IMG/VR virus record: IMGVR_UViG_3300042564_000253
DNA: 64,000 bases
Origin: a virus
Lineage: Duplodnaviria; Heunggongvirae; Uroviricota; Caudoviricetes
Reading direction: 5' to 3' (one strand)
In this document: one piece after another, positions 6,619 to 45,573 of the stretch
How positions within the stretch are numbered: the stretch's first letter is position 1
Layout: each line of letters starts with the position of its first letter
Translations under genes and position numbers: made by a program
The notes under the pieces: generated by a model
Seen by the model: the letters and a program-made list of their open reading frames with translations, nothing else
Told to the model about the DNA's origin: nothing
Databases searched by the model: none

Positions 6619-6704
6619 AATAATAATGTTAGCAAATGTAATTTAAAAATTTGGATCTACCAAGAGCGATAATGATTTTTGTTAATTTACTCTAACTGAA
6701 ATAG

Positions 6705-9700
6705 TTAGAGGTTTTTTAGAGCTTTGACAATTGAACTATTTCTAGCTTTAGTCTTTGGTGTCTTACCACCATTCTTATTATCTAAGAAGTTATCTAATTC
6801 TGATAGAGAAGGAGTGTTACCTGCCATTTCCTCTTTAGTTAATGTTCTAATTCCAACAGGTTCTCCTGTTACAGAATCTATCGTGAATCTCTTATTAGCT
6901 GGTAAACCTGCACCTGAAAGACCACCTCTTCTTGAACCACTACCTGATAAGTCAAACTGAGCAGGAGCATTCATGTTAATAGCTCTACCACTTGGAGAGA
7001 ATCTGAATCCATACATGTTCTCCATAATAGCTAGCTTTCTATTTGTTGCTCTTTGTTGTGCAGTCTTAGCAGCAATAGAACTTAAAGCAGCTTGGGTTTG
7101 AGCTTTGGTATTAGACTTAGCTTGAGACTGTCTAACGTATTGTTGATCATTGATTGCCAAGTTTTTAAGCTTAGCATCATTTATAATAGCTCTGTTCTTA
7201 TCATATACTCCCATCTTATTTGCCTGATTAACTCTATTTGATTCTCCAAATAACTTATTCTTAGCTTCTATTGTTTGAGCCATGATCATTGCTTGGGCAG
7301 CTGGATTTGAACCTGCAGCTCTAATGGCAGCTCTAGATTGAGAATCAATAGCATTGATTTGGTCATTGAAAGAAATGTCATATGGAGTATCTAACATTGG
7401 TTGATACTGTTGAGCCTGTACAGGTTCTAACTGATTCATAGCCATTGCATAATACTCAGGATACAATTGATCTGGAGGTAAGTCATCATTAGCATTGCTA
7501 GGTCTTAACCAAGGTTCTACATTAGATAAAACTGCTTTACCTATATCTCCTAATTTTTTCCAGTCAATTCCCTTACCTTCACCTTTACCTTGAGGTTCAG
7601 CATAAGCTTGAGCGTTAGTAAAAGGTCCAGGTAAGTCTGGCCATTCTAACAAGCTATAATCTATCTTTGGTTTCTTAGAAGAACTAACTATTGCTTCTGG
7701 AAGCATTGCAGCTTCAGCAGAACCAGGAAGACCTGAAGCTACTGGTATACCTCTTTTTATTTGCTCAAGAACTACAGGATCTATTTCACCTCCAACCTGA
7801 GCCTTCTTCATTTTCTTACCATTCTTTCCCATCATGCTTGGATCTGTTTCTTTTTCTAACTTACCTTCAGCTAACTTGTCACTCTTAACACCTAACTGTC
7901 TAGCTGTTTTGTGAATAGAGTCTTGTACTAATCCTGCTTCTTTAATCTTATCAGCATTAATTTTTTGTTGTGCTTTTGCACCCATAAGATTAGCCATACC
8001 AGAATTCATACCTAATTTATCATAGGAACTATTTCCATCATACTCTTCAATTAAGTCAAGTCCTTTTTGAATAGTCTTTAATTGCTTTGCATCATTCTTA
8101 GCTACATCAGCTATGTATGTTTTAAACTTCTTACCCTTTGCTTTTGGATCTCCTATAAGGTCTGCTATTTCTTTATTAATTTTAATATTACCAAACACAA
8201 CAAGGTTCTCTTTAGATCCACCATCTTCAAAGTTATTATCATCTTCTGAGCTATTGTCTTCTAGGATAGTAAATGGTTCACCACCTTCTACCTCTACACC
8301 ATTTTCACCATACTGAGTTTGGATGCCACCATTGTCATGAGATGCTCCTCTGAACATTCCTATCTCACCACCAGGTAAGTTAGGATTGTATGATAGAGTC
8401 TCTGCGTATCCACCATCTCCTATTTGTAACTCTCCACCTAATGCCATCTTTCCACCATCTTCCATACCTCCCATAGCTCCAAGTAATTGAGGAGTTTTTT
8501 CTAATGCATTTTTTAAACGAGTTCTACCAAACTTATCTATAACATATCCAGTAGCCATATTTGCTGCCATCATTGGAGCTGCCATAGCTAAGCCTACAAA
8601 AGCTTTAGGCATGTCTGGTCTACCAGTGTATAACGCTTCTGCACTAGGAGCTGTATACCCCACTTGTGCAATGTGTCCACCAGCTCTTAACATGTCTGCA
8701 TCATGTGGAGGTTTCAAAAGATCTTTAGCACTATACTCACCAAACTTAGTGAATGTCTGTGGCTGCCAATCATGACTAATCCATCCGCCATTCTTTACGT
8801 TTGCATTAAGAGGACCTTGAGATCTAGCTTGTTCAAATCCCATCATACTTGTATTCATTGCAGTCTTATCTTTCTGCTTTTGTAACTCTCTAGCATTCTT
8901 AGCACCACCTAACAAGTTACCTCCTATCTTACCTACAAGTTCTCCTACTATTGGAGGTAATCCAAACCCTTGAGCAATTGCTCCACCTACAGCACTACCA
9001 ATTTGTGCTTCACCAGAATCTTGGAAGTATTCTCCAAACTCTGCTTTAGGCATATTACCACCACGTCTGTATTGTTTCAATGTTTCTTCCATTGGTTCAT
9101 ATCCAAGGTCTGAATACAAATCCCCAGGAGTATATGTATTTTGTATCTCAGTAGGATTGCCACCTATCATTGTACCATTCTCAGCTTGTAAATAGTTTGT
9201 TTTATTACCATAAGGATTACCTAATTGTCCTGGTTGTACTAATGAATCTTCTGGTCTTACATATTGATTCTTAGGTCTTTCATTAGTTTGTTGAGCTGTC
9301 AAAGCAAGTCCTGATAACTCAGCACTTTGTTGTGCTTTCTTTCTTGCTTTCTTCTGTGCACCAATTGCTTCGATACCACCAATGATTTTACCTATTCCTT
9401 GTAGACCAGCCATACCTGCAGCACCTGCATTAAACCCTCCAGCTGCAGAAGCAACATTACCAAATCCTTCAGGAGGAGGAGTTGATCCATAGCCTGCAGC
9501 CATTGTATCAACTTGACTTACAGAGTTTCCACTCATAGGCATTTGAAACATTCCTGTATTAGGATTAACTGCACCACCACCTTGAAATTTAGTAGGATTG
9601 CCAAAGTCTGTAAGTTGGTGTAACTGATCGTTAACCATCTTACTACCCATAGCAGCTTTTTTAAATGCTTTACCATGAGCTTTCATAAATGCTTCTTCTG

Positions 9701-9767
9701 TAGGATACTTCTTGTAGAAGTCTTTCTCAGATTTTACTTTAGCAATTTTTAATATTTGGTCTTTCAT
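6705..9767 (-). CDS. Large Gly/Ala/Met-rich virion protein, 1020 aa. Candidate internal/ejection or tape-measure-like protein.
   Basis: 1020-aa ORF with low-complexity G/A/M stretches such as AAGGFNAGAAGMAGLQGIGKIIGG, sitting in the structural block. Confidence 0.6.
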   Translation of the reverse strand: MKDQILKIAKVKSEKDFYKKYPTEEAFMKAHGKAFKKAAMGSKMVNDQLHQLTDFGNPTKFQGGGAVNPNTGMFQMPMSGNSVSQVDTMAAGYGSTPPPEGFGNVASAAGGFNAGAAGMAGLQGIGKIIGGIEAIGAQKKARKKAQQSAELSGLALTAQQTNERPKNQYVRPEDSLVQPGQLGNPYGNKTNYLQAENGTMIGGNPTEIQNTYTPGDLYSDLGYEPMEETLKQYRRGGNMPKAEFGEYFQDSGEAQIGSAVGGAIAQGFGLPPIVGELVGKIGGNLLGGAKNARELQKQKDKTAMNTSMMGFEQARSQGPLNANVKNGGWISHDWQPQTFTKFGEYSAKDLLKPPHDADMLRAGGHIAQVGYTAPSAEALYTGRPDMPKAFVGLAMAAPMMAANMATGYVIDKFGRTRLKNALEKTPQLLGAMGGMEDGGKMALGGELQIGDGGYAETLSYNPNLPGGEIGMFRGASHDNGGIQTQYGENGVEVEGGEPFTILEDNSSEDDNNFEDGGSKENLVVFGNIKINKEIADLIGDPKAKGKKFKTYIADVAKNDAKQLKTIQKGLDLIEEYDGNSSYDKLGMNSGMANLMGAKAQQKINADKIKEAGLVQDSIHKTARQLGVKSDKLAEGKLEKETDPSMMGKNGKKMKKAQVGGEIDPVVLEQIKRGIPVASGLPGSAEAAMLPEAIVSSSKKPKIDYSLLEWPDLPGPFTNAQAYAEPQGKGEGKGIDWKKLGDIGKAVLSNVEPWLRPSNANDDLPPDQLYPEYYAMAMNQLEPVQAQQYQPMLDTPYDISFNDQINAIDSQSRAAIRAAGSNPAAQAMIMAQTIEAKNKLFGESNRVNQANKMGVYDKNRAIINDAKLKNLAINDQQYVRQSQAKSNTKAQTQAALSSIAAKTAQQRATNRKLAIMENMYGFRFSPSGRAINMNAPAQFDLSGSGSRRGGLSGAGLPANKRFTIDSVTGEPVGIRTLTKEEMAGNTPSLSELDNFLDNKNGGKTPKTKARNSSIVKALKNL

Positions 9768-9785
9768 ATTGAACTTTTGTATGAT

Positions 9786-12700
9786 TTATTTATATTTATT
9801 CAGCCAGCCACCATCTTTAAATGCTTTGATTTCTCCTTTACCCCCTTTGAACTTAGCAGGTATATCAAACTCATACCAGCTATTCCCCTTGCTATCTATT
9901 ACTGTTTTAGGCTCTACACCAAATGCTTTTTTAATAACCTTAGGTTGTTCTGAGTATTTTTTAAGAATAGTTTTAGCTTCTGGATCATATATCTTACCTG
10001 TTATTTTTCCATCTAAAATTGATTGTACAAACTGTATTTCATTTTCAGATATATCAGCCATGTTTTCTGCTAATTTAACAGGATCTTTTGCTAGCTCTTT
10101 ATATTTTTCTATAAACTCTTCACTATCAATAGCTTTGTAGTTTTGTACTTTAGCTGCAGTTTCTGATGTTGGTACTCTTATTTTATTTATGTCACTTCTT
10201 TTACCAGCATAGTCTATTAGTTCTTGTAAATATCTTTCTTGATGATTTTTATCTAATAAAAATTTTTGAGAGAAGTTTTTAAAAGATTCTTCTTCTAAAC
10301 TCAATTCTGCATCTGTTCTAACAGATGGATTATAATTAGCATAATCTTTTAACTTATTTAATTTAGCATTAGCTTCCTCTAAATTTTTAGGCATTATTCT
10401 ATGTGTACCTTGGAAAGCATCAGATTGTAACTGGGTCATTGTAAGAACATCTGGTGTGTCAGCATCTCTTAAGAAATGAATATGTCCAAGAGTTTCTTCA
10501 GGATTACCATGAGCACTAGAACCTTTACCAAATTTATTTTTATTACTTAATCTAATAGTTTGATTTTCTAAAGGAAGATTATTAAAATCTTTTAAGTCTA
10601 TCTCTAGATTTTCTTTTAATCGTTTTAAATATGTGTCATCACTCTCCCACCAAGAACGAAGGCCTTCTGTTTCTACTTTAAGAATTTCTTCCTTTGTATT
10701 ATTTATACGATCAAGAAGAATATCTTTACCACCTCCACTAGCTTTTGTATATCCTAGTTTATCTATACCATAACCAGAACGATCTGTAGCTACAACTTCT
10801 CTATCCAAAGGAATAAGTTGATCCTGTACTGTTTTTCTAAAGTCATTATAATCCATCTTCTTAGGAATATCTTTTCCTAATACTTGTTTTATCATATCCA
10901 CTTTACTGGCACCACCTGATTCTTTTCCTATAATAGTTAATGCTTGATCTACATTTATAAGTCCTGTTTTAGGTTCTATTATTTTACTAATAGGACCACC
11001 TTCCATTGTAGCTGATAAATGTAATCCTGGAAGTTCTTGTGATTTCCAAGATGGTTTTACATTAGGTGTAACATCATCCATTGTTAAATAAGGAGTCATT
11101 CCTTCAGGAATATCTCTTGAAGCAGACGTATTACCTACAGGACTATTTGCATATGCCTCAGGATTAAAGTTTGGATTTCTTTTAGCAAATCCAGGTTCTT
11201 CCCAATAATTAACAGGACCTCTTGTTACTTTACTAGTTATTACATTCTTTGCTTTTGATTTTAATGCACTTCTAATAGCTCCTACTCCTTCAGCTGCTCC
11301 CATAACATCTAGTGCAAACAAAGCAGCATCTTGCATATTTGCAGCCCCCTTACTAGCAGCCATTCTATTTAATGGAGCATTATTCTCAGCTATTCTTTCT
11401 AACTTCTGTTTATCAAACTTAGCTTGTTCTCCTGGTTTAGGAGTGTATTGAGAGATGGTAGCCTTAGGTGTGTTCATTCTTGCTAATCTTTCTTCAGCTT
11501 CTTCCTTTAATTTTTTATTAATGTTTCCACCATCTTGATACTTATCCAACCAACCACCATCTTGAGCCATAGGAAACTCTGTAACCTTCTTACCATCAAA
11601 CTTATAATCTTGATCAGGATACATCATCTGTGTATCACCTGTATCAGATACACCAAGTACAGGATAATCAACTCCCTGCATAGTGATGTCATTAGAACCT
11701 ATCTCTGTTATTTCACCTGGGTATGCTAACTGACCTCTGTCATCTTTAATCACCCCACCTTTCTGCATCTTCTGTTTAGATTTGATGTAGTCTTGGCCAT
11801 ACTTAGGAACTCCCATTCTTTTATAATCCTCTGGTTTAATATATTCTATTGTACCATCTTTCTTTTTAACTCCCACCACTGCACCACCACCCATAGTTCC
11901 AAAACCCCAACCATTAGGAATAGGAGCCATAAGTTGTTCTCCATCATCATAGTTATATAATTGTTTTGGTTGAGGAGTAGGTTGTTGAATAGGAGTAGTT
12001 ACTGGTTGTTGTTCAACTACTGGAGTTGGTTCAGGTTCAGGTTTTGGTTCAGGTTTTGAAACTATTTTCTGTATAGGTTTTGAAACTGTTTCTTTTATAC
12101 CACTATCTTTTCCATATCTTTTAATTCTAAGTGCTCTCTCCTCTGGAGTAAGCATATTTACTGGTTTTATTAGTATAGGATCGTAATCATATACTGTTAC
12201 ATTTCCTCCTGGATAATCTGAACTTTTAGGAAGATAATTAATCCTTCTTTGTGGAGATATTCGTTTATCAACTATTGCAAATGGAGACATTAAATTTTGC
12301 ATTGGAGTTACAAGATCTCTATAATACTCTTGGTATTCAGAACTACCTTTAGTTTGAGCAAGACCTTTATTTTCTAATTGACGAACTTGTTCAGGAGATA
12401 GATTAAAAATCTTTTTATATTCATTATCAAATGCATATAATTTATTAGCTCTACGTTGTATTTGAGTACGATAAAAATCTAAGTTTGCTTGTCTTAAATC
12501 CTTATCAGTATCTCCATAAAAATCAGAAACCCACTCTTTCATAATCCTACCAGCTTTCATTTCATTTTCATAAAACTTATTAAGAGCTATTTGGGAATTA
12601 TATAAACGAGTACTATCTGCTGTTGTAGGAACAGGTATTGCTTTTCCACTCTGAGCAGAAGCTAATGTCTTCTTAGCATACTTGCCATTACTAGGAGCAG

Positions 12701-12938
12701 GGTCTTGCGTACGTGCGTATGTGAATCCTACAGCACCTGGTAGTGCACCACCCATTGCCATAGTGCCCCCCCATGATCCATTATAGTCAAAGCCTTTGTT
12801 AGTTGTTCCTTCACCCACCCAACCTGGACCAGCAGTGGAATATCCTTCATTGGCATTCTCTCGTTTGCCATAGTTATCCTTAGTCTTTTTCTTTAAGACC
12901 AAGCCTCCTTGTTCGTATTTGTCTAACCAGTTTACCAT
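9786..12938 (-). CDS. Large structural protein, 1050 aa, with a PEPKPEPEP linker and three copies of a (D)GGWL(D/N)KY peptide.
   Basis: The ORF carries the motif at its N-terminus (MVNWLDKYEQGG), mid-protein (AQDGGWLDKYQDGG, encoded around 11548-11580) and extreme C-terminus (KDGGWLNKYK, around 9789-9818). Confidence 0.65.
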   Translation of the reverse strand: MVNWLDKYEQGGLVLKKKTKDNYGKRENANEGYSTAGPGWVGEGTTNKGFDYNGSWGGTMAMGGALPGAVGFTYARTQDPAPSNGKYAKKTLASAQSGKAIPVPTTADSTRLYNSQIALNKFYENEMKAGRIMKEWVSDFYGDTDKDLRQANLDFYRTQIQRRANKLYAFDNEYKKIFNLSPEQVRQLENKGLAQTKGSSEYQEYYRDLVTPMQNLMSPFAIVDKRISPQRRINYLPKSSDYPGGNVTVYDYDPILIKPVNMLTPEERALRIKRYGKDSGIKETVSKPIQKIVSKPEPKPEPEPTPVVEQQPVTTPIQQPTPQPKQLYNYDDGEQLMAPIPNGWGFGTMGGGAVVGVKKKDGTIEYIKPEDYKRMGVPKYGQDYIKSKQKMQKGGVIKDDRGQLAYPGEITEIGSNDITMQGVDYPVLGVSDTGDTQMMYPDQDYKFDGKKVTEFPMAQDGGWLDKYQDGGNINKKLKEEAEERLARMNTPKATISQYTPKPGEQAKFDKQKLERIAENNAPLNRMAASKGAANMQDAALFALDVMGAAEGVGAIRSALKSKAKNVITSKVTRGPVNYWEEPGFAKRNPNFNPEAYANSPVGNTSASRDIPEGMTPYLTMDDVTPNVKPSWKSQELPGLHLSATMEGGPISKIIEPKTGLINVDQALTIIGKESGGASKVDMIKQVLGKDIPKKMDYNDFRKTVQDQLIPLDREVVATDRSGYGIDKLGYTKASGGGKDILLDRINNTKEEILKVETEGLRSWWESDDTYLKRLKENLEIDLKDFNNLPLENQTIRLSNKNKFGKGSSAHGNPEETLGHIHFLRDADTPDVLTMTQLQSDAFQGTHRIMPKNLEEANAKLNKLKDYANYNPSVRTDAELSLEEESFKNFSQKFLLDKNHQERYLQELIDYAGKRSDINKIRVPTSETAAKVQNYKAIDSEEFIEKYKELAKDPVKLAENMADISENEIQFVQSILDGKITGKIYDPEAKTILKKYSEQPKVIKKAFGVEPKTVIDSKGNSWYEFDIPAKFKGGKGEIKAFKDGGWLNKYK

Positions 12939-22311: not shown

Positions 22312-22346
22312 TTAAACAAAAACCCCCAGCCTTGAAAGGCCAGGGG
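22312..22346 (-). terminator. Rho-independent terminator on the minus strand, downstream of the 284-aa fibre gene.
   Basis: The minus-strand RNA reads CCCCUGGCC-UUUCAA-GGCUGGGGG, a 9-bp stem with two G.U pairs, followed by UUUUUGUUU. Confidence 0.6.
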
Positions 22347-32218: not shown

Positions 32219-32388
32219 ATGTAGTTGTTTTTTGTTGGTTTATTTGCAGATGGTTCCCATCGAAGGGAACACTGTAAGGCATGGAGCCTGTACATGTCCA
32301 TCTGTGTTAGAAGACTCCCCCACTGGGATGTGGGGGGGAATTCTTCTTTGTATTTGTAGAGCGTAGTTCTAACCTTGCTCTAGGTTTT

Positions 32389-35905: not shown

Positions 35906-38490
35906 TATTTAGGTTTTTTAGTAGCTCTTCCTTTAGCGTTTTCTTTAGCAACAGCTAAGTCATTTGCTTGGTTATCTCGTGCCACTTGTAGTTTCTCTTT
36001 CTCTAATTGTAACTTCTCAGCAGCAAGTCTATTCTTAGTCATATTATCTTGCATCTTCATTTGATAATCTCTTGAAGCACTTTCTTTTTGTAATCCTATC
36101 TTTTCAATTTCTAGAACATCAGGAGAGCCAGATTTATCTACATCAGACAATGGACCTGCTTTAGATTCAGCTGCAATAAGAGCAATCTCTTTCTTATTGA
36201 TTCTATCAAGCTCAGCTTGGTAGTTATCATTAGCTATCTTCTCCTCAGATTGTTGTTGAGCCATTTGAAGTTGAGCTTGAGCTTGTTGTTGCTGTTGTTC
36301 AAGTTCTTGTTGCTTTTGTTGCATTTGAGTATTTTGTAATTGCTCTTGTCTCTCCTTAAGTGTCTTAAATACCTTCTTCATTTGTCTCATGGAGTTAGTA
36401 CTGTAAAGCTCAATTACATCATGTAAAGATCCACCATTTTGTAGAACTGCTTGAGACAATCCTCTGATTTCTTCAAATGCTTTTCTATCTTCAGGTCTGT
36501 TAGTTAAATATACTTTTAGATCTCTGAATCTTAAGTCTGTACCATTTACAGTTACAAAAGCAGATTCTCCTTGATTAGTAATATAAGATATAGTTGATTG
36601 TGGTTTCTTAGCTTCTACATATAAAGCTGCATCAATAACAGCTTGATATAACTGACCCATAATATATTCATGTGCTACAAACAAAGGTTCTGTTTGAGAA
36701 TAAGATTGTGTAATAGCTGCATTGGTACCTGTAGCTGATTCACTAGCAGACACAGATCCAAGTCTTTGCTTAGACATACCAATTAATTCCCAACATTCAT
36801 TCTTGATTTGTTGTGCTAGAGTATATCTTGCTTGGATCTCTGTAGTACGTGTAAGATCTAAGCTTGTATATTGGTTGAAACTAGATGGACTCTTTAAGTT
36901 CTCAGGACTATCATCTACAAATACCACACCTCTATTACGTGCTTCCATTTCCCAGATATCTAATGCATCTTGAGCATCACCATCCTTAGGAATAGGAATA
37001 TGTCTAATAGACATTAATTGTACCTTACCCACTTCCTTCTCAAGTAACTTATATAATTGGTTCATACAAACATTGTATATAACTTGGAAAGGTTTCATCA
37101 TATCTACTAAGCTCTTAGCTTCTGTATTCTTAACTTCAAATGTTTGACCTATTATAGGACAATAAGGTAATAACTTATAAGGTTTAACATGATAGATATC
37201 TGGACCAATTTTAATACCTTGGTACCATTGATTAATCCATCCCCACTCTAATGATTCTTGTGTAGGAAGAGTGCCTGACTTATAGTTTTCATCTACAAGT
37301 AAAGACTGCTCATTTCCCATCTCATCTGTATAGATTACTTTACCTATCTTCTTTTTAGAAATCCAATACGCTCTAACCACTACATACTTATAACCAAATG
37401 AAGATACATTAGATGTAAGTCCTAAGAAGTCCTTAAGACCATCATTGTTCTCTTTCATTTCTGATTCAATAAGCATTCTAGTCTGTAAGACTAATGGATC
37501 AAATGTATCGTATTGGATAGAGTCATTGCCTGGAACAGCATTAGGATTACCTAAGTTAGATTCACGTACATTGATTAATCCATAGTCTTGTAATGAACTA
37601 CGTAAGTGATCTATTTCATCTTTAGTTAAGTCTGGAATAGCTTCAATGATTTCAGATAATTCTAACACTTGTACAGTACCAGCAGCATATGCTCCTTGTG
37701 CTCTACCAGTTGTATCAGATATCCATTTTCTATCAGGGGTAGTTAAGAACCAAGTGTTCTTTGGATTAGCTACTTCTATATTAAATCCTAGCTTAGAGTT
37801 GTCCTCATAGATATGAAAGAACTCTCTAGCAGATATCAATAAGTCTCTAAATGAATCTTCTCCTTTTTCTTTAAGATTAAATTCAATCTTTTGAGCTGAA
37901 AGAATATGATTTGCCCATTTCTCTGCTACAGATGTATAGTTATCTATTTCATCTTTCACTTGTTCCATGGTCATTTGATCTAACTCTTCAGGATCAATTT
38001 CTTGACCTTGAGCCATTGCTTGTTCTTCTATCTTTTGTTTTGCTTGATTAATTACATATTCATTTAGTATCTGAGTCTTAAATTGTAACTCTTCAGCTTG
38101 ACTATCATCATCAAATGCTTTTACTAGGAAAGCATCAGGTCGCTTTGATATTTCTCCTACTAACTCGTTAATAGGAGTGGTCATTATAGAATAATGTTTT
38201 ACATAAGCAGGAAGTTCAAGATCTGATGTAAGTACATCTGTAAAACTTCTAACTTCTGGTTCTACAAAGAAATCTTCTCTTCTTAAAATACCTTTAACAA
38301 GATCATAGTTTTTTACAAATGTATCTCTAGCTTTGACGTACTCCGCATACGCTTTGTTTGCAAAGTAGTCCATTGTATTCTTAATCCAGCTTTCATCCAT
38401 CTTTTCCTTCTCAGTTTTAAACTGATCAGGGAAGATATTCAGATAAGCATATCTTATTGTTGCGTCTTTTGTGTACCTTATAATTGCCAT
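35905..38490 (-). CDS. Putative portal protein, 861 aa.
   Basis: A large ORF immediately downstream of, and overlapping, the terminase large subunit. It has a Q-rich coiled-coil C-terminus. The size is typical of crAss-like portals. Confidence 0.6.
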   Translation of the reverse strand: MAIIRYTKDATIRYAYLNIFPDQFKTEKEKMDESWIKNTMDYFANKAYAEYVKARDTFVKNYDLVKGILRREDFFVEPEVRSFTDVLTSDLELPAYVKHYSIMTTPINELVGEISKRPDAFLVKAFDDDSQAEELQFKTQILNEYVINQAKQKIEEQAMAQGQEIDPEELDQMTMEQVKDEIDNYTSVAEKWANHILSAQKIEFNLKEKGEDSFRDLLISAREFFHIYEDNSKLGFNIEVANPKNTWFLTTPDRKWISDTTGRAQGAYAAGTVQVLELSEIIEAIPDLTKDEIDHLRSSLQDYGLINVRESNLGNPNAVPGNDSIQYDTFDPLVLQTRMLIESEMKENNDGLKDFLGLTSNVSSFGYKYVVVRAYWISKKKIGKVIYTDEMGNEQSLLVDENYKSGTLPTQESLEWGWINQWYQGIKIGPDIYHVKPYKLLPYCPIIGQTFEVKNTEAKSLVDMMKPFQVIYNVCMNQLYKLLEKEVGKVQLMSIRHIPIPKDGDAQDALDIWEMEARNRGVVFVDDSPENLKSPSSFNQYTSLDLTRTTEIQARYTLAQQIKNECWELIGMSKQRLGSVSASESATGTNAAITQSYSQTEPLFVAHEYIMGQLYQAVIDAALYVEAKKPQSTISYITNQGESAFVTVNGTDLRFRDLKVYLTNRPEDRKAFEEIRGLSQAVLQNGGSLHDVIELYSTNSMRQMKKVFKTLKERQEQLQNTQMQQKQQELEQQQQQAQAQLQMAQQQSEEKIANDNYQAELDRINKKEIALIAAESKAGPLSDVDKSGSPDVLEIEKIGLQKESASRDYQMKMQDNMTKNRLAAEKLQLEKEKLQVARDNQANDLAVAKENAKGRATKKPK

Positions 38491-40529
38491 TATGAAAACA
38501 ATTTATTTCGTTTATATTTATTTTTTGATTGTCCAAACATGTTATTTCTAGAGTCAGTGAAGAGTATGTTTCCTCTCTTCTTCTTAAACATAGAAGCAAC
38601 TCGTTCATCACCTGTTCCACCTATCTTACCCATAATTGGGTCCATCTTCAAAGCTTGTGCTATGGCTAACTCTGCAGCTATGATTCTATCAAAGTTACCT
38701 TGATCATTGTATTGAATAATCTCTTCAAGCAATACAGGATCAAATATCTTACTCACACCTAACACTTCTCTAATCACTTCACCTGCATCATTCTTCTCTA
38801 CAAATATTGGAGCTTCCATATACTTCTTTAAACAAGTGTGAAGATAGTCAATTATCTTCTGACTTGAACGATGAATACCATAATCTCTTTTAACTGTAGT
38901 GTTTGGTACAATCTCTTTCAACCATTCAGGTTGTCTTTCTAAAAAGTGAGCATCTCCTTTAGCTTTCATATATTCAATAAAGGATATATCATCATTCTCA
39001 CAAAGAGCTCTAGCATTATAATACTTTATAAGAAGTCTAGCTTGTTCTTCCCAAGTTTCTTTCTTATCAGGTCTTGCACAATACGAAGCTACGAACATAT
39101 CTTGATACTTCTCACCACTAATTTCATGCATCCTCTTATATATGTATACAGATCCAAGCGAAGTTGAATATGCAGACTTACCTTGTCTATATGGATCGAC
39201 TCCTGCTACGTACAATCCATAAGGTGGATTATCTATAGGAAATTCATATATAACTACAGGTGCTTCTTTTAAGTCTGAGTTCTTTAGAGGGAAGTTAGAA
39301 ATAGGAAGCTTATCTGTAAATTCATGCTCTATACCAGTCTCTCCAGAAAATAATATAACTGGAGTTCCTGTTCTTTCTTGTTGTAACAACCTAGACTTCT
39401 GTCTCTTAGCACTCTCAATATCAAATATATTTGTGTCCTCGTTTAAGAAGATATCATCTACTTCTTGAGGATAGTACATCTTTTCTTTTAGATAGGCAAT
39501 ACGATCACCAGCTTTCTTAAGTCTTTCTAAATCTCTATTAGTAATTTCTGTAGCCTTATCTTCATTACTTACAAGCATTTTAACATTGTGTAAATCAGAT
39601 TTACCTGATATGTTTAAATATGCTGCTAGTGTAGAATCCTCCTTTGCCTCCATTCTATATTTATGGGAGATAAACAACCCATGTATACGTTTGTCATCTT
39701 TAGCATTATTATATGTAAGGAAATTAAAGTTATCTACGTCAAACATCAAGCTTTTGGCATCCATGAATTTCTTCATGTCACCACCTGTACCAGTAAGAAT
39801 GGGACTACATCCCCAGCCATAGGGTGTAGTGAAACCTGGAATAGCAGCTTGTAAGCCTCTAAGAAAATTCCCTTTACCAATCTCATCTATAATTAATTTA
39901 CGTGGTTTTGTACCTGCAATTGCCTCTTCATTATTACCTTCATCAAGGTTACGTATTAGAATGGAAGAGAATGGGATACGTTCACCAGACTTGGTCTTTA
40001 TACCTAGAGTCACTTGGTTCTTCCAGTTATCCTCAATTCTCTGCCACCTCCAATACTCAGGAATGAAATTCAATCCTTTGTCAATCTTATCAGTAATCAG
40101 TTTTATATCTGGGGCATTTAAGCCTGCTATGATATTCTGACTGTTTTCATCAAAGGTCGCACCCCATGCAATATAGGATGCTTCTAAAACTGACTTGGCA
40201 AAACGTCTAATACCTAGAATGACTAAGCCCCTCTTTTCTTGTTGAGCTCTGTCAATTTCGTTCGTCACAAGCCATTCATTATCTCTCAATAGGGGATTGG
40301 CATATTTCTGTGCAATCCTCCCATAACTATCTATTATATCTACTTCTGTATGCCATATATTAAGGTGCCAGTAAAGGAAAGGATTAATATAAGTTCCTCC
40401 CATCATGGCTCCATTTAAGCATAGCTCTCTGTGAAAGTCAAAGAATGGCTTACATTCCTGAGACTCTTTATCAGGAATACGCTTCTGATTTATAAACCAG
40501 TCTTTGTAGTCTATACTTTGTAGTTCCAT
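38490..40529 (-). CDS. terL: Terminase large subunit, 679 aa.
   Basis: ATPase Walker A variant GIRRFAKS, Walker B LIIDEIG, and a nuclease-domain acidic motif VAGVDPY. Confidence 0.8.
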   Translation of the reverse strand: MELQSIDYKDWFINQKRIPDKESQECKPFFDFHRELCLNGAMMGGTYINPFLYWHLNIWHTEVDIIDSYGRIAQKYANPLLRDNEWLVTNEIDRAQQEKRGLVILGIRRFAKSVLEASYIAWGATFDENSQNIIAGLNAPDIKLITDKIDKGLNFIPEYWRWQRIEDNWKNQVTLGIKTKSGERIPFSSILIRNLDEGNNEEAIAGTKPRKLIIDEIGKGNFLRGLQAAIPGFTTPYGWGCSPILTGTGGDMKKFMDAKSLMFDVDNFNFLTYNNAKDDKRIHGLFISHKYRMEAKEDSTLAAYLNISGKSDLHNVKMLVSNEDKATEITNRDLERLKKAGDRIAYLKEKMYYPQEVDDIFLNEDTNIFDIESAKRQKSRLLQQERTGTPVILFSGETGIEHEFTDKLPISNFPLKNSDLKEAPVVIYEFPIDNPPYGLYVAGVDPYRQGKSAYSTSLGSVYIYKRMHEISGEKYQDMFVASYCARPDKKETWEEQARLLIKYYNARALCENDDISFIEYMKAKGDAHFLERQPEWLKEIVPNTTVKRDYGIHRSSQKIIDYLHTCLKKYMEAPIFVEKNDAGEVIREVLGVSKIFDPVLLEEIIQYNDQGNFDRIIAAELAIAQALKMDPIMGKIGGTGDERVASMFKKKRGNILFTDSRNNMFGQSKNKYKRNKLFS

Positions 40530-40861: not shown

Positions 40862-41135
40862 CTTCTTCTTCCTCCTCCTTAAGGATATTATCAAGGTCCA
40901 TGCCTTCTTTAATTATTTTTTCAAGTTCAGAGTCATCTGTGTGTGGGACATCCATCTCAATCTCGCTCTTATATTTACTTAGAGCAAAAGCAAGTTCTTT
41001 ATCTGTTATACCCCAGATATCACCATAATCTGCAAGAGCTGTAGCTAGATGTCTTCCAATATTGTATGTTGGAAAGTCAGCATGTAGTTCTTGTAGTATA
41101 TTAATGACTTCTGTATAGTGAGTCTTTTTACTCAT
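40848..41135 (-). CDS. Small acidic hypothetical protein, 95 aa.
   Basis: An ORF in the operon. Confidence 0.4.
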   Translation of the reverse strand: MSKKTHYTEVINILQELHADFPTYNIGRHLATALADYGDIWGITDKELAFALSKYKSEIEMDVPHTDDSELEKIIKEGMDLDNILKEEEEEDGNY

Positions 41136-41140
41136 TAGTT

Positions 41141-41395
41141 TTATATTAATTCATTTAAATCATCATCTGTTAGCTTTGAAGATATGATCTCTAAATCAAC
41201 CTCTAGTTCTCCAAAGTTTTCTTTTCCATGTTCTGTCATATAGTCTCTTGTAAAGGCTATACCCATTCTATCAAACTCAACCCCAGGAACTCCCACTATA
41301 TCAACATAGTCTATACCTTTATTATATAAGTCAACAAGCGTATCAATTAGCCTGTCCAGTGGAATCCTCTCTATTTTCACTTCCCTGTTTTCCAT
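41141..41395 (-). CDS. Small hypothetical protein, 84 aa.
   Basis: An ORF. Confidence 0.4.
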   Translation of the reverse strand: MENREVKIERIPLDRLIDTLVDLYNKGIDYVDIVGVPGVEFDRMGIAFTRDYMTEHGKENFGELEVDLEIISSKLTDDDLNELI

Positions 41396-41690
41396 ATATT
41401 GTTTGTATTAATTGATCTTCATCTTCCTTAGATTCCATTTCTGGTCCCCATTTGTCTATGGGACAGCTACAAGATAAACACTTAGTTTTTGCTGATAGGA
41501 CACATCCACAATGAGTGCAATGCTTATCAAACCTACGAGGCTTCTTAGGTTTGTTCTCAGAACACCATTCGCATTGATCACAAATGGCCATACGTTCTTT
41601 ACTGACTTGTCTAATCTGTTCTTTTATTTCATCAGCTGGAAAGAGGTTGTTCTTCCACCCCTCGTATATCTGAGAGAAGTTGATCTTCAT
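41343..41690 (-). CDS. Cys-rich zinc-binding protein, 115 aa.
   Basis: CDQCEWC ... CTHCGC ... CLSCSCP cysteine clusters. Confidence 0.45.
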   Translation of the reverse strand: MKINFSQIYEGWKNNLFPADEIKEQIRQVSKERMAICDQCEWCSENKPKKPRRFDKHCTHCGCVLSAKTKCLSCSCPIDKWGPEMESKEDEDQLIQTIYGKQGSENREDSTGQAN

Positions 41691-42033
41691 ATATAGTTTT
41701 TGTTGTTAGCAAATTGATCAGAGCTTCTGTTTTCTCTAGTGTCACCTTAGATGAACGTTTCTTTTGTTCAGATGTAGTTTCATCTATTATTATCTTTTCC
41801 ATTGCCTGCTTCTTAGCATTCAATTGTCCAAGTCGTTTTGTAGCTTTCTTCTCATTGAAATAGAACTTACCAAAGCCAGATATCTCCAGACTATTGTTAA
41901 GATCCATTGCCTCATTGGCAGACTGAAACTGATGGTTTATCACAGCCTCAATCATCTTTTCATTCATCATCATCTTAACTGCAAGCGTCCTAACTAGGAA
42001 GTCTTTGACAGACATGCTTATAGGCTTATCCAT
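41632..42033 (-). CDS. HU/IHF-like histone-like DNA-binding protein, 133 aa.
   Basis: The LEISGFGKFYF motif (the GFGxF arm-base signature of HU/IHF) preceded by a helical N-terminus, with an extended C-terminus as in Bacteroidetes-type HU. Confidence 0.55.
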   Translation of the reverse strand: MDKPISMSVKDFLVRTLAVKMMMNEKMIEAVINHQFQSANEAMDLNNSLEISGFGKFYFNEKKATKRLGQLNAKKQAMEKIIIDETTSEQKKRSSKVTLEKTEALINLLTTKTIYEDQLLSDIRGVEEQPLSS

Positions 42034-42400
42034 GTATTAGACTTATTTGCAATATAATATCTTTGTCGAAGTTGAGCAAGATGAGAGGATTGACCTTCAC
42101 CTTTGTCCCATCCTTTACAAACACACCCATCTTCTTCAGCTTACTAATAATGTTATTGATTGCAGGAGATGTACTGTCGTATTTCTCACAAAACTCCTTA
42201 CGTATGTTAGCATAGGATATATTACCCTTCATAGCAGCAAACGCAATAAGCTGTATCTCCCTGTTTGTCAACTTAAGGTCGTTGACAGATGACAATATTC
42301 TATAATACTTCTCAGCCAGGACGTAACTGTCCTCCACTGATCTTTTCAGTCGTTGTACAATAGGAGATTTAGGTTTGGTTTCCATAATTAGTTGATACAA
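42026..42400 (-). CDS. Hypothetical protein, 124 aa, the first gene of the minus-strand block. Possible HTH regulator.
   Basis: An ORF next to the divergent control region. A helix-turn-helix-like stretch TNREIQLIAFAAMKGNISYANI is present. Confidence 0.4.
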   Translation of the reverse strand: MYQLIMETKPKSPIVQRLKRSVEDSYVLAEKYYRILSSVNDLKLTNREIQLIAFAAMKGNISYANIRKEFCEKYDSTSPAINNIISKLKKMGVFVKDGTKVKVNPLILLNFDKDIILQISLIHG

Positions 42401-42463
42401 AGGTATGTATATCTTACCTATCTACAAATAACTATTTTAGTTATTGCAAAAGTTAATGCTATA

Positions 42464-42709
42464 TTATGCATCAAATCTCCTAAACAGGAAAATAACACTG
42501 AATATCAATAGCCCTATCCTAAGCTCCTGCTCCAATCCTCCATCGTCTAGCTTGTAGTTTCTATTAGACACTCCTAGTTCAAAACTGTTATAGTCTTTAG
42601 GAAGAAACTCTATACCTATCTCATACTCCTCAAAGCAAACTAACCCCCATACAATCACTGCCATACTAAGCAATGTCACTATAACCAACAACACATTTAC
42701 TACTACCAT
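42464..42709 (-). CDS. Possible small membrane protein, 81 aa, with two TM helices.
   Basis: Hydrophobic N- and C-terminal segments. It lies at the edge of the control region. Confidence 0.3.
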   Translation of the reverse strand: MVVVNVLLVIVTLLSMAVIVWGLVCFEEYEIGIEFLPKDYNSFELGVSNRNYKLDDGGLEQELRIGLLIFSVIFLFRRFDA

Positions 42710-43438
42710 ATATCTAAGCTTTGTTTACAGGGAGGTGAATTAACAGGGCCCCCCCTAAATCCCCCCCAAAGATACTGCTAAATAAATTTACCAGCCAAAT
42801 TTATTTTTGCCTATTATCAAAACTTGCAGGATTTTCTAGTTTTGATACAACAGGATATTATATCATAAAGCATATAATATGTAAGATGTAAGATGATTCC
42901 ATCATTATATGTAAAACCATATCATAATGTGTCATAAAAGCAACATTGTTAAGCTGAGCATATCCCTTATAAGACACATTATGTAAAGCTATAGCTTGAC
43001 AAAACGTAAGATGGGTAAAGCCATAGCTTGACTTTTGGCAGAATATAGACTTGTTATATCTTGCCAAATCAGGAAGTGAAACACAGCCAAACCCAGAAGT
43101 CCTTGTTACCTATTTATATAAATATGTCACAAATATTTGAAAAATTGTGACACAATGTGCATGAAGAATTTGGAAAAATTCATGCAAAAAGGTTCCTTGT
43201 GGAAATATCCTGTGCTTTGACTATGTACACAATTTTCTATATGCCCCCAGTCTTATCAGCCCATCCCCTCTAGCCCCCCAAAATTTTACATAGCCCCCAG
43301 TCTTATTGTATCCATGGGAGGAGAGGGTAACCCAGATTGCACCCCCCTACACAAAACAGGGGGTTGACATATCCCCCCTATGGCTCACAATTAACAAACC
43401 TATAGTGGAGACACCACTACAAAACTGTAAAATTCGTT
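42710..43438. promoter_or_regulatory. Divergent control region, possibly an origin, with poly-C tracts and short direct repeats.
   Basis: C6-C7 tracts near 42747, 42759, 43274, 43342 and 43374. A 14-mer GCCCCCAGTCTTAT occurs twice (43243-43256, 43294-43307). (C/T)ATAGCTTGAC occurs twice (about 42991 and 43022), each carrying TTGACA/TTGACT. Tandem TAAGATG occurs at about 42886. TTGACA-N16-CACAAT lies at 43364-43391. Confidence 0.5.
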
Positions 43439-43825
43439 ATGGTAATCAATTCAGGCAACTTCTCACCAAATGGTAACTTCAATGGTTACAACACTAAAGG
43501 CGAAAGAATCCACATCTACAAGCGTCAGATGGATGCATTGGGCATTAAGGTTGATGCAGACTTTAAGCAATTCTTCGCTATAGTTGCAAAGAAAACTTAT
43601 GGTGCAAGACTTGACAAAGATGGTAATGCAATACCTTACGCTGATGGCAAGTTAACAATGACTCGTGATACTGCAACTGCAGTGTTCAAGACCAAGCAAG
43701 AGTACATTGACGCTCACGTGATAGACGCTACATTAGATGCAGAAGTTGCACAGGCTATCAAGAAAGAGTACACTGCTGTGGGCATCACAAGCGAAGCAGA
43801 GCTTGAAGAGTTGGCAGGGGCTTAA
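43439..43825 (+). CDS. Hypothetical early protein, 128 aa.
   Basis: An ORF followed by a terminator. Confidence 0.5.
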   Translation: MVINSGNFSPNGNFNGYNTKGERIHIYKRQMDALGIKVDADFKQFFAIVAKKTYGARLDKDGNAIPYADGKLTMTRDTATAVFKTKQEYIDAHVIDATLDAEVAQAIKKEYTAVGITSEAELEELAGA

Positions 43826-43840
43826 TCTCACACTTAACAA

Positions 43841-43872
43841 GGGCTTGGAACACCATCCAAGCTCTTGTTTTT
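43841..43872 (+). terminator. Rho-independent terminator.
   Basis: GGGCTTGGA-acacca-TCCAAGCTC stem of 7-9 bp followed by TTGTTTTT. Confidence 0.6.
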
Positions 43873-44470
43873 CCTTATTCGTATATAAGGGTGGGTGTTA
43901 TTGCACGTTTGGGTGGGAATAATTATATAACTCACTGAAATTCAATACATTCTGCATGAATGTGAGAGTTGGTGTGTACTCTTTACCCACTTATTACCAC
44001 ATTTTCACACATTATTCATTCACGCTATACAATACAATATATATAGCATTAAATAACATATTACAGTTGTAATGAGACACATTTATAGATATACAATCAT
44101 AAGATGATAAAGTGTACGCTTATATTATATAAGAGTATTACTACAGGCTTGTGATCATTGTAATAGGTATATCTTTGTGGGTTATTAGTCACGTTTTTTG
44201 TGAACTAATAGCCAACTCATTACAGCTGTTCTTTTTATTAATATATTAAATAACATTTATATGTACAACGTTAAAAGATTTCATATACAGCTTACTAAAG
44301 ATAGTGAGTGGACTATTGAGTTAGGGCATTCAATAGGTCATGTTATGCAGACATTAGTATTAGACTATTCTGCTACACCATATTCATATTTTATCACTGA
44401 GTATTAAAATACTAATGTACCATTTCTATTTCCCAAGGATAGACAGATGTAATACTAGAGGAGGACAGTA

Positions 44471-45049
44471 ATGTTCGATGTAAACTGTATTACATCTGAG
44501 TACAGAGGGATTTTATTCACACACATATTAAATAAAAAACACATGAACAAAATTCAAGTCTTAATAGACAATGGCTTTATTACATTACAAGATGTATTTG
44601 ACTATGTTAATTCAGGAGAACCTGAGAACGATGCTGATCAAATGGATTGGTCTGATGACGATTACAAACAAATGGCTGCTGAAAATGAGGCTGCAGAACA
44701 ATTAGCTCATGAGCTTAATCGTACAGATTATATTGATTATCAGCCAGAGTATGTTCTTGCTTCTACAAGTGATCTTATGCAAGAGACAATGGTATTTCCT
44801 TCTAATGCAGATGGAGAAATCACTAGTTATGGTGATCTAGCCTGTTTAGCATTAAGATATGGCTCTGATAATTGGGAAGATCCTATGGCTGCTATTATTC
44901 AATTAAACACTGATGAGTATAAGTATATACATGTCAAGACGCTTGATGGTGGTAATAACATACATAATCTATTTAGAAAAATAAACACAGTTGAAGAACC
45001 ATTAACAGAAACAGACTATTGGGATGGTGATGCATCTCATTCTGAATAA
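44471..45049 (+). CDS. Acidic hypothetical protein, 192 aa.
   Basis: An ORF preceded by the only strong Shine-Dalgarno in the window (AGGAGG, 7 nt upstream). Confidence 0.5.
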   Translation: MFDVNCITSEYRGILFTHILNKKHMNKIQVLIDNGFITLQDVFDYVNSGEPENDADQMDWSDDDYKQMAAENEAAEQLAHELNRTDYIDYQPEYVLASTSDLMQETMVFPSNADGEITSYGDLACLALRYGSDNWEDPMAAIIQLNTDEYKYIHVKTLDGGNNIHNLFRKINTVEEPLTETDYWDGDASHSE

Positions 45050-45136
45050 TATATATCTCTGCTATTAGCCTTTAGCGTGCCAAAGGCGATATATATTTAT
45101 ATAACACATTATTAATCAATTATTTAACACACATTT

Positions 45137-45364
45137 ATGAACTTTATTAAACACATTGCTAATTTATTAGCACTATGGACAATACCATATATAATTGTCC
45201 TATTCTTTTTATTAGTATCAGGATTTGCATTTGTATATCAGGATGCTATTTGTTCTACACCTTACATTATAGCTTATGCATTCTATTTTATGATGATGTC
45301 TATATTATACATGTCAGGTGATGAAAAGGACTTTGAAAGTATTAAATTATTTAAAATCAATTAG
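45137..45364 (+). CDS. Small membrane protein, 75 aa.
   Basis: Two hydrophobic helices. Confidence 0.45.
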   Translation: MNFIKHIANLLALWTIPYIIVLFFLLVSGFAFVYQDAICSTPYIIAYAFYFMMMSILYMSGDEKDFESIKLFKIN

Positions 45365-45366
45365 TT

Positions 45367-45573
45367 ATGAAAATTACTAAAACAAGCTCATTAACAGGTG
45401 TTGAGCACACCATGGACATAGATGTTACATTTGAACAACTATGGAAGATTGATAACAAGACAGATCTTATTCAACGTATTGTTCCTCATCTACCATCTGC
45501 AGAACGTGAGTTCTTAATGACAGGCATTACAGATGAAGAATGGCAATTAGCCTTTGCTGATATGGTAGAATAA
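45367..45573 (+). CDS. Small hypothetical protein, 68 aa.
   Basis: An ORF starting 3 nt after the previous stop. Confidence 0.4.
   Translation: MKITKTSSLTGVEHTMDIDVTFEQLWKIDNKTDLIQRIVPHLPSAEREFLMTGITDEEWQLAFADMVE

Follow-up and report, generated by a model that had tools for sequence, protein, structure and literature searches.

What does the junction between the two gene blocks of this phage contain, and why do runs of C collect there? The stretch analysed here, referred to below as the window, comprises 64,000 nucleotides (nt) of the viral record IMGVR_UViG_3300042564_000253 and is, by its gene content, part of an uncultured crAss-like phage. In the list of open reading frames (ORFs) of the window, the long ORFs lie on the minus strand up to position 42709 and on the plus strand from 43439 onward. 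An initial annotation had described positions 42401-43438 as a divergent control region rich in poly-C tracts and short repeats, a candidate promoter hub or origin of replication. The accumulation of C-runs is genuine: 8 of the 14 runs of at least five C in the whole 64 kb fall within 735 nt (42644-43378; binomial P = 8.5e-13), starting at 42644, 42749 (C7), 42761 (C7), 43244, 43274, 43294, 43342 and 43373, and a G5 run starts at 43359. The gene blocks do diverge here, but the interval is partly coding. Because 42464-42709 is an 81-aa minus-strand ORF, into which the C5 run at 42644 falls, the true non-coding spacer is 42710-43438. Since C-runs are found at corresponding places in relatives, over hundreds of uncultured crAss-like phages, we regard them as selected features and not as products of chance.

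In our opinion, the spacer is probably a divergent control region that stands between the leftward packaging/structural block and the rightward early/replication block. A comparison with ~100 related contigs resolves two universal elements in it, a leftward promoter with a G-tract array at its left end and a core ahead of the first plus-strand gene at its right end. The left element consists of two overlapping features:

42767..42802, minus strand: putative leftward promoter P_L of the Bacteroidota sigma-A type, with -33 AAATTTGG, 21 nt, and -7 TATCTTTG (42774-42767)
42749..42767, minus strand: G-tract array G7-ATTTA-G7 (C7-TAAAT-C7 on the plus strand), on the non-template strand at about -5 to +14 of P_L

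Read on the minus strand, 42802-42749 gives AAATTTGG, 21 nt, and TATCTTTG-GGGGGG-ATTTA-GGGGGGG, in which the -33 core is TTTG and the last G of the -7 box opens the G-run. The C-run tracts at the left are thus nothing else than the complement of the promoter's G-array, because the array sits on the minus (non-template) strand. The consensus of the primary sigma factor of Bacteroidota (sigma-ABfr) is TTTG at -33 and TAnnTTTG at -7 (PMC7366714), and P_L has the TAnnTTTG box with a TTTG 21 nt upstream of it, within the usual range of about 19-21 nt. The host signature of the window appears Bacteroidota-like as well, since a Shine-Dalgarno-like motif precedes just 2 of 45 genes and the upstream regions contain 50% A. 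The transcription start is predicted to lie inside the first G-run, at ~42762; promoters of this type start 4-7 nt beyond the -7 box. The TTGACA boxes to which attention was drawn initially are indeed present at 42995 and 43364, but they are weak as -35 elements, given the Bacteroidota-like host and a sigma-70-type promoter scan at chance level (15 sites versus 13.6 +/- 3.9 in shuffles); a terminator scan was likewise at chance level. A second, tandem leftward promoter (-7 TAAATTTG at 42803) was considered and rejected, as its -33 spacer would be just 14 nt.

The argument for P_L comes from its conservation, which was followed in two samples of relatives. The first was obtained by a viral scan for the motif C7-N2-5-C7-AAAG, which returned 90 contigs, ~50 of them related to this phage with large terminase (TerL) proteins 53-99% identical to that of the window. 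In all ~50 the motif has the same place and orientation, upstream of a homologue of the leftward gene p124. The 35 unique sequences vary hardly or not at all at -33 and -7: the -7 box has A as its second base in 35/35, and both central T's at -33 are kept in 35/35. However, this sample had been selected on the motif itself, and for that reason a second one was drawn via the p124 protein alone; it yielded 276 relatives, 80 of which were fetched, and is the sole unbiased sample. (Fetched contigs carry L labels: L001-L008 are close relatives, L102-L181 were found via p124, and L182/L183 are phage phi14:2.) The composite of -33, -7 and G-array was matched in 62 of the 80 p124-selected loci, and the -7 box reads TA[ACT]CTTTG in nearly all of these relatives. 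In our view, this pattern identifies P_L as a leftward host-type promoter conserved over the relatives. The idea of a divergent control region or promoter hub is therefore upheld by a leftward Bacteroidota-type -33/-7 promoter that recurs in relatives and whose -7 box is the one found ahead of gene g110 of phi14:2.

What follows the -7 box is no less constant in position. The array is the sole strict (G3+N1-7)x4 match in the 64 kb and the top G4Hunter peak (2.2), and it reads as a canonical quadruplex motif, GGG-G-GGG-ATTTA-GGG-G-GGG, on the minus strand at 42767-42749. An energy model with RNA parameters predicts a three-layer G-quadruplex (G4) for it (-20.6 versus -10.1 kcal/mol). The G7-N-G7 type is kept with a variable spacer in the 35 unique motif-sample relatives, where eight spacers occur (TAAAT, TTTAT, TTATT, TTTTT, TTAT, TTT, TTC, TT) and neither run is ever shorter than 7. 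Among the p124-selected loci just one third are of this type, and the rest carry TTTGAGGGTGGAGGGTGGGG, TTTGGGGTGGAGGGTGGG, TTTGGGGAGTGTGGGTGGGGAAGG or TTTGGGGTGGTTGGGTGGG at the identical position; at most loci no other site in the fetched 5 kb has a higher G4Hunter peak than the array. Phages whose p124 is 100% and 98% identical carry different array types, and such differences between near-identical phages argue against a site for a sequence-specific protein. Given that the types vary at a fixed position, it seems that what is conserved is a G-tract array on the non-template strand and not a particular sequence. In pairs of otherwise identical contigs a C/G run may have 8 bases in one and 7 in the other (L061 versus L064, L162 versus L163), which reflects either rare slippage or sequencing error.

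The right element is a core whose parts, apart from a C-rich spacer and TRTRT that lie between the first and the second of them, can be listed as follows:

43280..43385, plus strand: single-copy core of ~115 nt with alternating C and G blocks, as delimited by alignment and position logo
43280-43287, plus strand: A4T4
43314-43329, plus strand: ATGGGAGGAGAGGGTA
43342-43347, plus strand: CCCCCC
43359-43363, plus strand: GGGGG
43373-43378, plus strand: CCCCCC

The core occurs once in the window and aligns near-gaplessly over 61 unique relatives. Its consensus order is A4-5T5-6, a 20-nt and often C-rich spacer, TTrTrT, ATGGGAGrrGAGssTACTyC, AACCCC, TTG..GGTTGGGG, a loop of 3-10 nt, and CCCCC. It lies 35-110 nt upstream of the first plus-strand gene, and that gene comes from at least three unrelated families; hence we assign the core to the module and not to any one gene. 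In all lineages the G-run can pair with the C-run in a hairpin with a G:C stem of 4-6 bp and a loop of 3-10 nt. A sigma-A-type promoter was found on the plus strand in 0 of 30 complete spacers, compared with 21 of 30 on the minus strand. Between its T-run and its conserved ATG, the core has the same spacing as P_L has between -33 and -7. We consider the core a candidate start element for rightward early/replication transcription, one that would be used by something other than the host primary holoenzyme. The conserved ATG was also considered as the start of a small ORF; this was rejected, as about 1/4 of the relatives have neither ATG nor GTG there and the conservation is not 3-periodic.

How might the two elements work? 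Host RNA polymerase would start leftward inside the first G-run. Opening of the duplex, together with a stable hybrid of G-rich RNA and C-rich DNA, would let the displaced G-strand fold into a quadruplex, and this quadruplex would tune the firing of, or the escape from, the promoter that drives p81, p124, an IHF-like gene and the terminase gene. Rightward early/replication transcription would begin at the core and depend on a polymerase or factor distinct from the host sigma-A holoenzyme, with the G-run:C-run hairpin as part of the start signal. The quadruplex, the start sites and the role of the core are what we infer from the patterns described above.

Several points weigh against this proposal. 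Both start sites are predictions made from sequence only. With regard to the array, the variants other than G7-N-G7 have three G3+ tracts and one G2, their G4Hunter values are 1.3-2.4, and ViennaRNA gives them a two-layer quadruplex or none; the conserved feature could then be a G-rich discriminator or initial transcribed sequence, or a GGGTGGGG-type contact. With regard to the core, its -10-like TRTnnATG is a poor sigma-A box, RNAalifold gives no consensus structure for it, and its folding z-score is modest (~-1.1 to -1.3) and equal on both strands. Finally, among the large virion genes of the window, the search for a virion RNA polymerase gene found no DFDxD motif, and three of the large proteins are without a PDB match.

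An origin of replication has to be weighed next. The form of this idea that survives best is a transcription-primed origin, in which G-rich non-template R-loops at P_L, and possibly at the core, would prime the leading strands in both directions. We consider it unlikely, though not implausible, because both predicted starts have G-rich non-template DNA downstream (G7-ATTTA-G7 beyond the -7 box and ATGGGAGGAGAGGG beyond the right TRTRT box). Both elements are single-copy and universal, and they lie beside the replication module. In Carjivirus communis, moreover, the OriFinder origin is placed directly upstream of the first forward-strand gene (PMC10983915). The GC-skew check that had been suggested does place the cumulative minimum at ~43.4-43.6 kb; however, the change in skew falls exactly at the switch of gene orientation, thus it is uninformative and cannot count as independent evidence of an origin. 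The sole conserved AT-rich stretch is just 8-11 nt long (A4-5T5-6), no initiator gene was identified, and the G-array, which begins at ~-5, is nearer to the start than in known R-loop origins.

The hairpin of the core raises the further question whether a structured RNA is encoded there, either as a 5' leader or as a stand-alone non-coding RNA, with the C- and G-runs as its helices. There is something to be said for this, and we rate it as a rather doubtful explanation. The G-run:C-run pairing is found in all lineages, the outer stem appears compensatory by eye (GCAGG/CCTGC, GACAAG/CTTGTC, GCCAAG/CTTGGC, TTGAG/CTCAA), some lineages have stems of 12-14 bp that include G.U pairs, the average fold is more stable than that of shuffled sequences (mean z ~-1.2), and phi14:2 is a precedent for abundant early non-coding RNAs. 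On the contrary, the RNAalifold result speaks against a common fold, neither energy nor z-score has a strand preference, and the core has no Rfam match: the sole match of the Rfam scan is a chance-level microRNA outside the region, and a tRNA scan gave none. The best conserved positions of the core are invariant, and therefore say nothing on pairing.

A broader reading, which seems to us still less likely, combines several of these ideas. It takes both elements as structure-forming DNA, with the leftward promoter firing into a quadruplex-forming array and the core, with its G-rich non-template blocks and G:C hairpin, serving as entry site of the crAss-type virion RNA polymerase. The two G-rich zones, opened by transcription, would jointly be a bidirectional R-loop-primed origin and a recombination hot spot as well. 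The hot spot would then sit at the border of a mosaic early region.

The location of the spacer also allows one to think of a packaging signal or genome end (pac/cos or the edge of a terminal repeat) that would be read by terminase together with the winged-helix and IHF-like proteins. Indeed 2.2 kb separate the region from the large terminase gene downstream of it, with p124 and an HU/IHF-like gene in between. Of the 80 fetched contigs, 25 stop less than 2.5 kb from p124 on its early-gene side as against 3 on the other side, L150, L153 and L167 begin exactly at the G-tract array, and a linear form of Carjivirus communis bears terminal repeats (PMC10983915). However, the contig ends are scattered over more than 2 kb and are not stacked on one base, and 14 of the 17 full-length contigs (102-118 kb) listed in this p124-based sample read through at arbitrary positions. 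Drop-out of sequencing at homopolymers or G4 motifs, or the edge of a conserved island next to strain-variable early genes, would be equally expected to produce such ends. In our opinion a genome end at this place is improbable.

Returning to the divergent control region, we should describe what lies between its two elements:

42815..43188, both strands: accessory middle modules with five inverted repeats and two GTAAAGCYATAGCTTGAC copies, located with a repeat finder
42815-42824/42838-42847: first inverted repeat
42923-42940/42966-42983: second inverted repeat
43034-43047/43055-43068: third inverted repeat
43125-43137/43140-43152: fourth inverted repeat
43158-43165/43179-43186: fifth inverted repeat
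42983-43000 and 43015-43032: direct repeats GTAAAGCYATAGCTTGAC
43228..43312, plus strand: 50-nt tandem duplication of the start of the core, which creates two copies of GCCCCCAGTCTTAT and extra C-runs

The ~430 nt between the left and right elements are kept block by block in eight long-type relatives. In short-type relatives the whole spacer is ~210 nt and consists of the promoter with its G-array and the core, without the middle modules. The inverted-repeat modules are likely operator sites. The operator-like palindromes at 43125-43152 (TGTCACA..TGTGACA) and 43158-43186 (TGCATGAA..TTCATGCA) are kept in most long-type relatives.

The repeats reported in the initial annotation exist as described or nearly so. 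The 14-nt repeat GCCCCCAGTCTTAT has two copies, at 43243 and 43293 (spacing 50), the (C/T)ATAGCTTGAC repeat is part of a longer one of 18 nt, GTAAAGCYATAGCTTGAC, at 42983 and 43015 (spacing 32), and a tandem GTAAGAT is present at ~42882-42896. As to their conservation in related phages, the 18-nt repeats are found in 8/8 long-type relatives but are absent from the short-type ones, and the 14-nt pair is specific to a lineage, as the 50-nt duplication that gave rise to it is present in the window and L005-L007 and absent in L001, L003 and L008. A classical iteron origin or a phase-variable homopolymer switch, both of which had been suggested, is most improbable: two 18-nt copies, even if kept in every long-type relative, are fewer than the at least three expected, their module is missing in short-type relatives, the 14-nt repeat is a private duplication and an extended AT-rich unwinding element is not present, while the occasional 7/8 length differences (L061 versus L064, L162 versus L163) stand against tracts that remain at C7, rarely C8, over dozens of lineages with TerL identities of 53-99%. 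These tracts are placed beyond the -7 box, neither in an ORF nor between -33 and -7, and hence not at a site from which their length could switch expression.

The genes and minor features on the two sides of the spacer are the following:

38490-40529, minus strand: large terminase gene, by PHROG match
42026..42385, minus strand: p124, winged-helix DNA-binding protein, first universal gene of the packaging/structural block, with the ATG at 42385 taken as start
42398..42427, minus strand: putative internal host-type promoter ahead of p124, TTTG, 19 nt, TACCTTTG, with a perfect -7 box and a correctly spaced -33
42464..42709, minus strand: p81, small accessory ORF of 81 aa with hydrophobic ends, from the ORF list and translation
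43395-43427, minus strand: weak leftward promoter-like site, TTTTG, 17 nt, TAGGTTTG, with the -7 box at 43402-43395, overlapping the TAGTGG hairpin
43403..43419, plus strand: hairpin TAGTGG-AGACA-CCACTA just upstream of p128, kept only in L001-L008
43439..43825, plus strand: p128, first gene of the early/replication block in the lineage of the window, an ORF with relatives 48-100% identical

On the left side, p124 is 60-100% identical in relatives and has 1505 homologous protein clusters in public metagenomes. The best 120 of these 1505 clusters are all at least 79% identical, which means that this clade of phages is very widespread. Some of the clusters carry Joint Genome Institute (JGI) names such as MarR-family regulator or biotin operon repressor; JGI itself calls a shorter p124 of 103 aa, named MarR-family regulator. 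Pfam matches of p124 to helix-turn-helix (HTH) families are weak, and so is its sub-threshold similarity to the N-terminal domain of lambda O (E 0.03). The sequence of its internal promoter is kept in the close relatives L001-L008. By tblastn, p81 is present in some relatives with 45-98% identity and absent in others. On the right side, lineages other than that of the window have unrelated genes at the position of p128. Phages with the same core thus differ in the first gene of the replication/early block, which is exchanged between at least three unrelated families; this points to frequent recombination right beside the core. The promoter-like site at 43395-43427 points from the start of p128 into the core and would give an antisense G-rich transcript; it is confined to close relatives and has a short spacer.

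The assignment of the window to crAss-like phages is based on PHROG matches to TerL, portal and major head protein of the crAss type, on the layout of two opposed gene blocks, and on a minus-strand protein of 1666 aa with the Pfam Crassvirus muzzle domain (crAss_MUZ, E 1e-34). The plus block is a replication module with ParB-like, DNA polymerase, DnaB-like, SNF2-like, primase-like and GyrB-like genes. The closest TerL proteins are those of Leptolyngbya phage Lbo-JY46 (39%) and Cellulophaga phi4:1 (31%), and crAss-like records follow with 25-28%. A search for near-identical DNA with 41000-45500 against a cultured-phage collection gave no match, nor did the p124 protein against the same collection, so that this collection holds no cultured member of the clade. 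Downstream of the muzzle gene, three minus-strand ORFs at 3910-12938 (902, 1020 and 1050 aa) have no PHROG, Pfam or PDB match; that of 1050 aa has a lone DTDKD at residue 143. Another minus-strand ORF, at 1-3907, is a giant: from a start near 3907 it covers at least 1311 aa and is cut by the left end of the window. The portion of it inside the window has no DxDxD motif; its product may be the virion RNA polymerase of the crAss type or some other cargo protein. The other C5/G7 runs of the window are few and lie in short intergenic gaps of the structural block (32317-32338, 22323-22327); among them CCCCCACTGGGATGTGGGGGGG is hairpin-like and may be a terminator.

Why should one care about a cluster of C-runs? 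The crAss-like phages are among the most abundant viruses, and their early promoters, origins and packaging signals are essentially undefined. Here the cluster resolves into two precisely bounded cis-elements that can be synthesised and tested. What appears to be new is that, throughout the family, a host-type promoter is paired with a quadruplex-type G-array, and that the replication module has a conserved putative start element, single-copy and with fixed spacing, that is not of host type. If the array folds, it would be a rare case of a conserved promoter-embedded G4 in a bacterial virus, with its natural variants as a ready allelic series. The occurrence of the core without a host-type promoter makes the question which polymerase starts the early transcription of this clade directly testable.

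It remains to compare the spacer with systems that are better known. It shares direct repeats near replication genes with lambda ori and with plasmid iteron origins, but unlike these it has two repeats only, which are dispensable in short-type relatives, and no extended AT-rich element. Mitochondrial LSP-CSBII, ColE1 RNA II and T4 oriF/oriG, after which the transcription-primed origin is modelled, likewise combine a promoter with G-rich non-template DNA downstream, and in the window this combination lies at a change of skew sign. In the mitochondrial, ColE1 and T4 cases the G-rich block follows the start at a distance of tens to hundreds of nt, and the RNA-DNA transitions are mapped; the phage array differs in beginning at ~-5. 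The core, on the other hand, brings to mind the virion RNA polymerase promoters of phage N4, which occur as three hairpin copies with stems of 5-7 bp and loops of 3 nt. In both cases a short G:C hairpin directly precedes the first early genes of a podovirus whose relatives inject a virion RNA polymerase, but the core has one copy instead of three and loops of 3-10 nt instead of 3, and the window is without a recognised virion RNA polymerase gene.

Among crAss-like phages, early genes are transcribed by an injected polymerase whose promoter is not known. In vitro, the virion RNA polymerase of phi14:2 accepts as template only DNA that is single-stranded or denatured, and it has no known early promoter motif. 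The middle promoters of the same phage, upstream of g070, g075, g108 and g110, have been mapped by primer extension and are used by the host polymerase (10.1101/2020.03.07.982082). That of g110, the first leftward gene there, resembles P_L: it is directed leftward at the divergent junction, ahead of small genes that precede the IHF/structural block, and it reads TTG, 20 nt, TATCTTTG, with a -7 box identical to that of P_L. The two differ in that phi14:2 has no G-array after the -7 box, where TATCTTTGTAGTATG runs into the start codon, and the overall identity is low (TerL below 30% to crAss-like records). At the divergent junction of phi14:2 (L183 2480-2560) there is also a hairpin, TTGGGG-AGTAT-CCCCAA, ~70 nt upstream of g111, which is similar to the terminal hairpin of the core. 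In phi14:2, ATTTGTGTGAC precedes both the g111 hairpin and a tRNA-like T-arm GGGGGTTCGAATCCCCCC (L182 4430-4500) in a long and highly transcribed intergenic region. The junctions of crAss001 and Lbo-JY46 have no comparable C/G-run architecture.

For the array itself, the nearest likeness is in Neisseria gonorrhoeae, where a promoter abuts the pilE G4, a small RNA (sRNA) starts within the motif and transcription is needed for the quadruplex (PMC3547852, PMC13463697). The pilE G4, with the promoter of its gar sRNA, is similar to P_L in that the motif is on the non-template strand and the start is inside the motif, although the latter is a prediction here. The Neisseria element serves RecA-dependent gene conversion and yields a non-coding sRNA, while the phage transcript would be an operon mRNA. 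The array variant GGGGTGGTTGGGTGGG closely resembles the pilE G4, the sequence of which is GGGTGGGTTGGGTGGGG.

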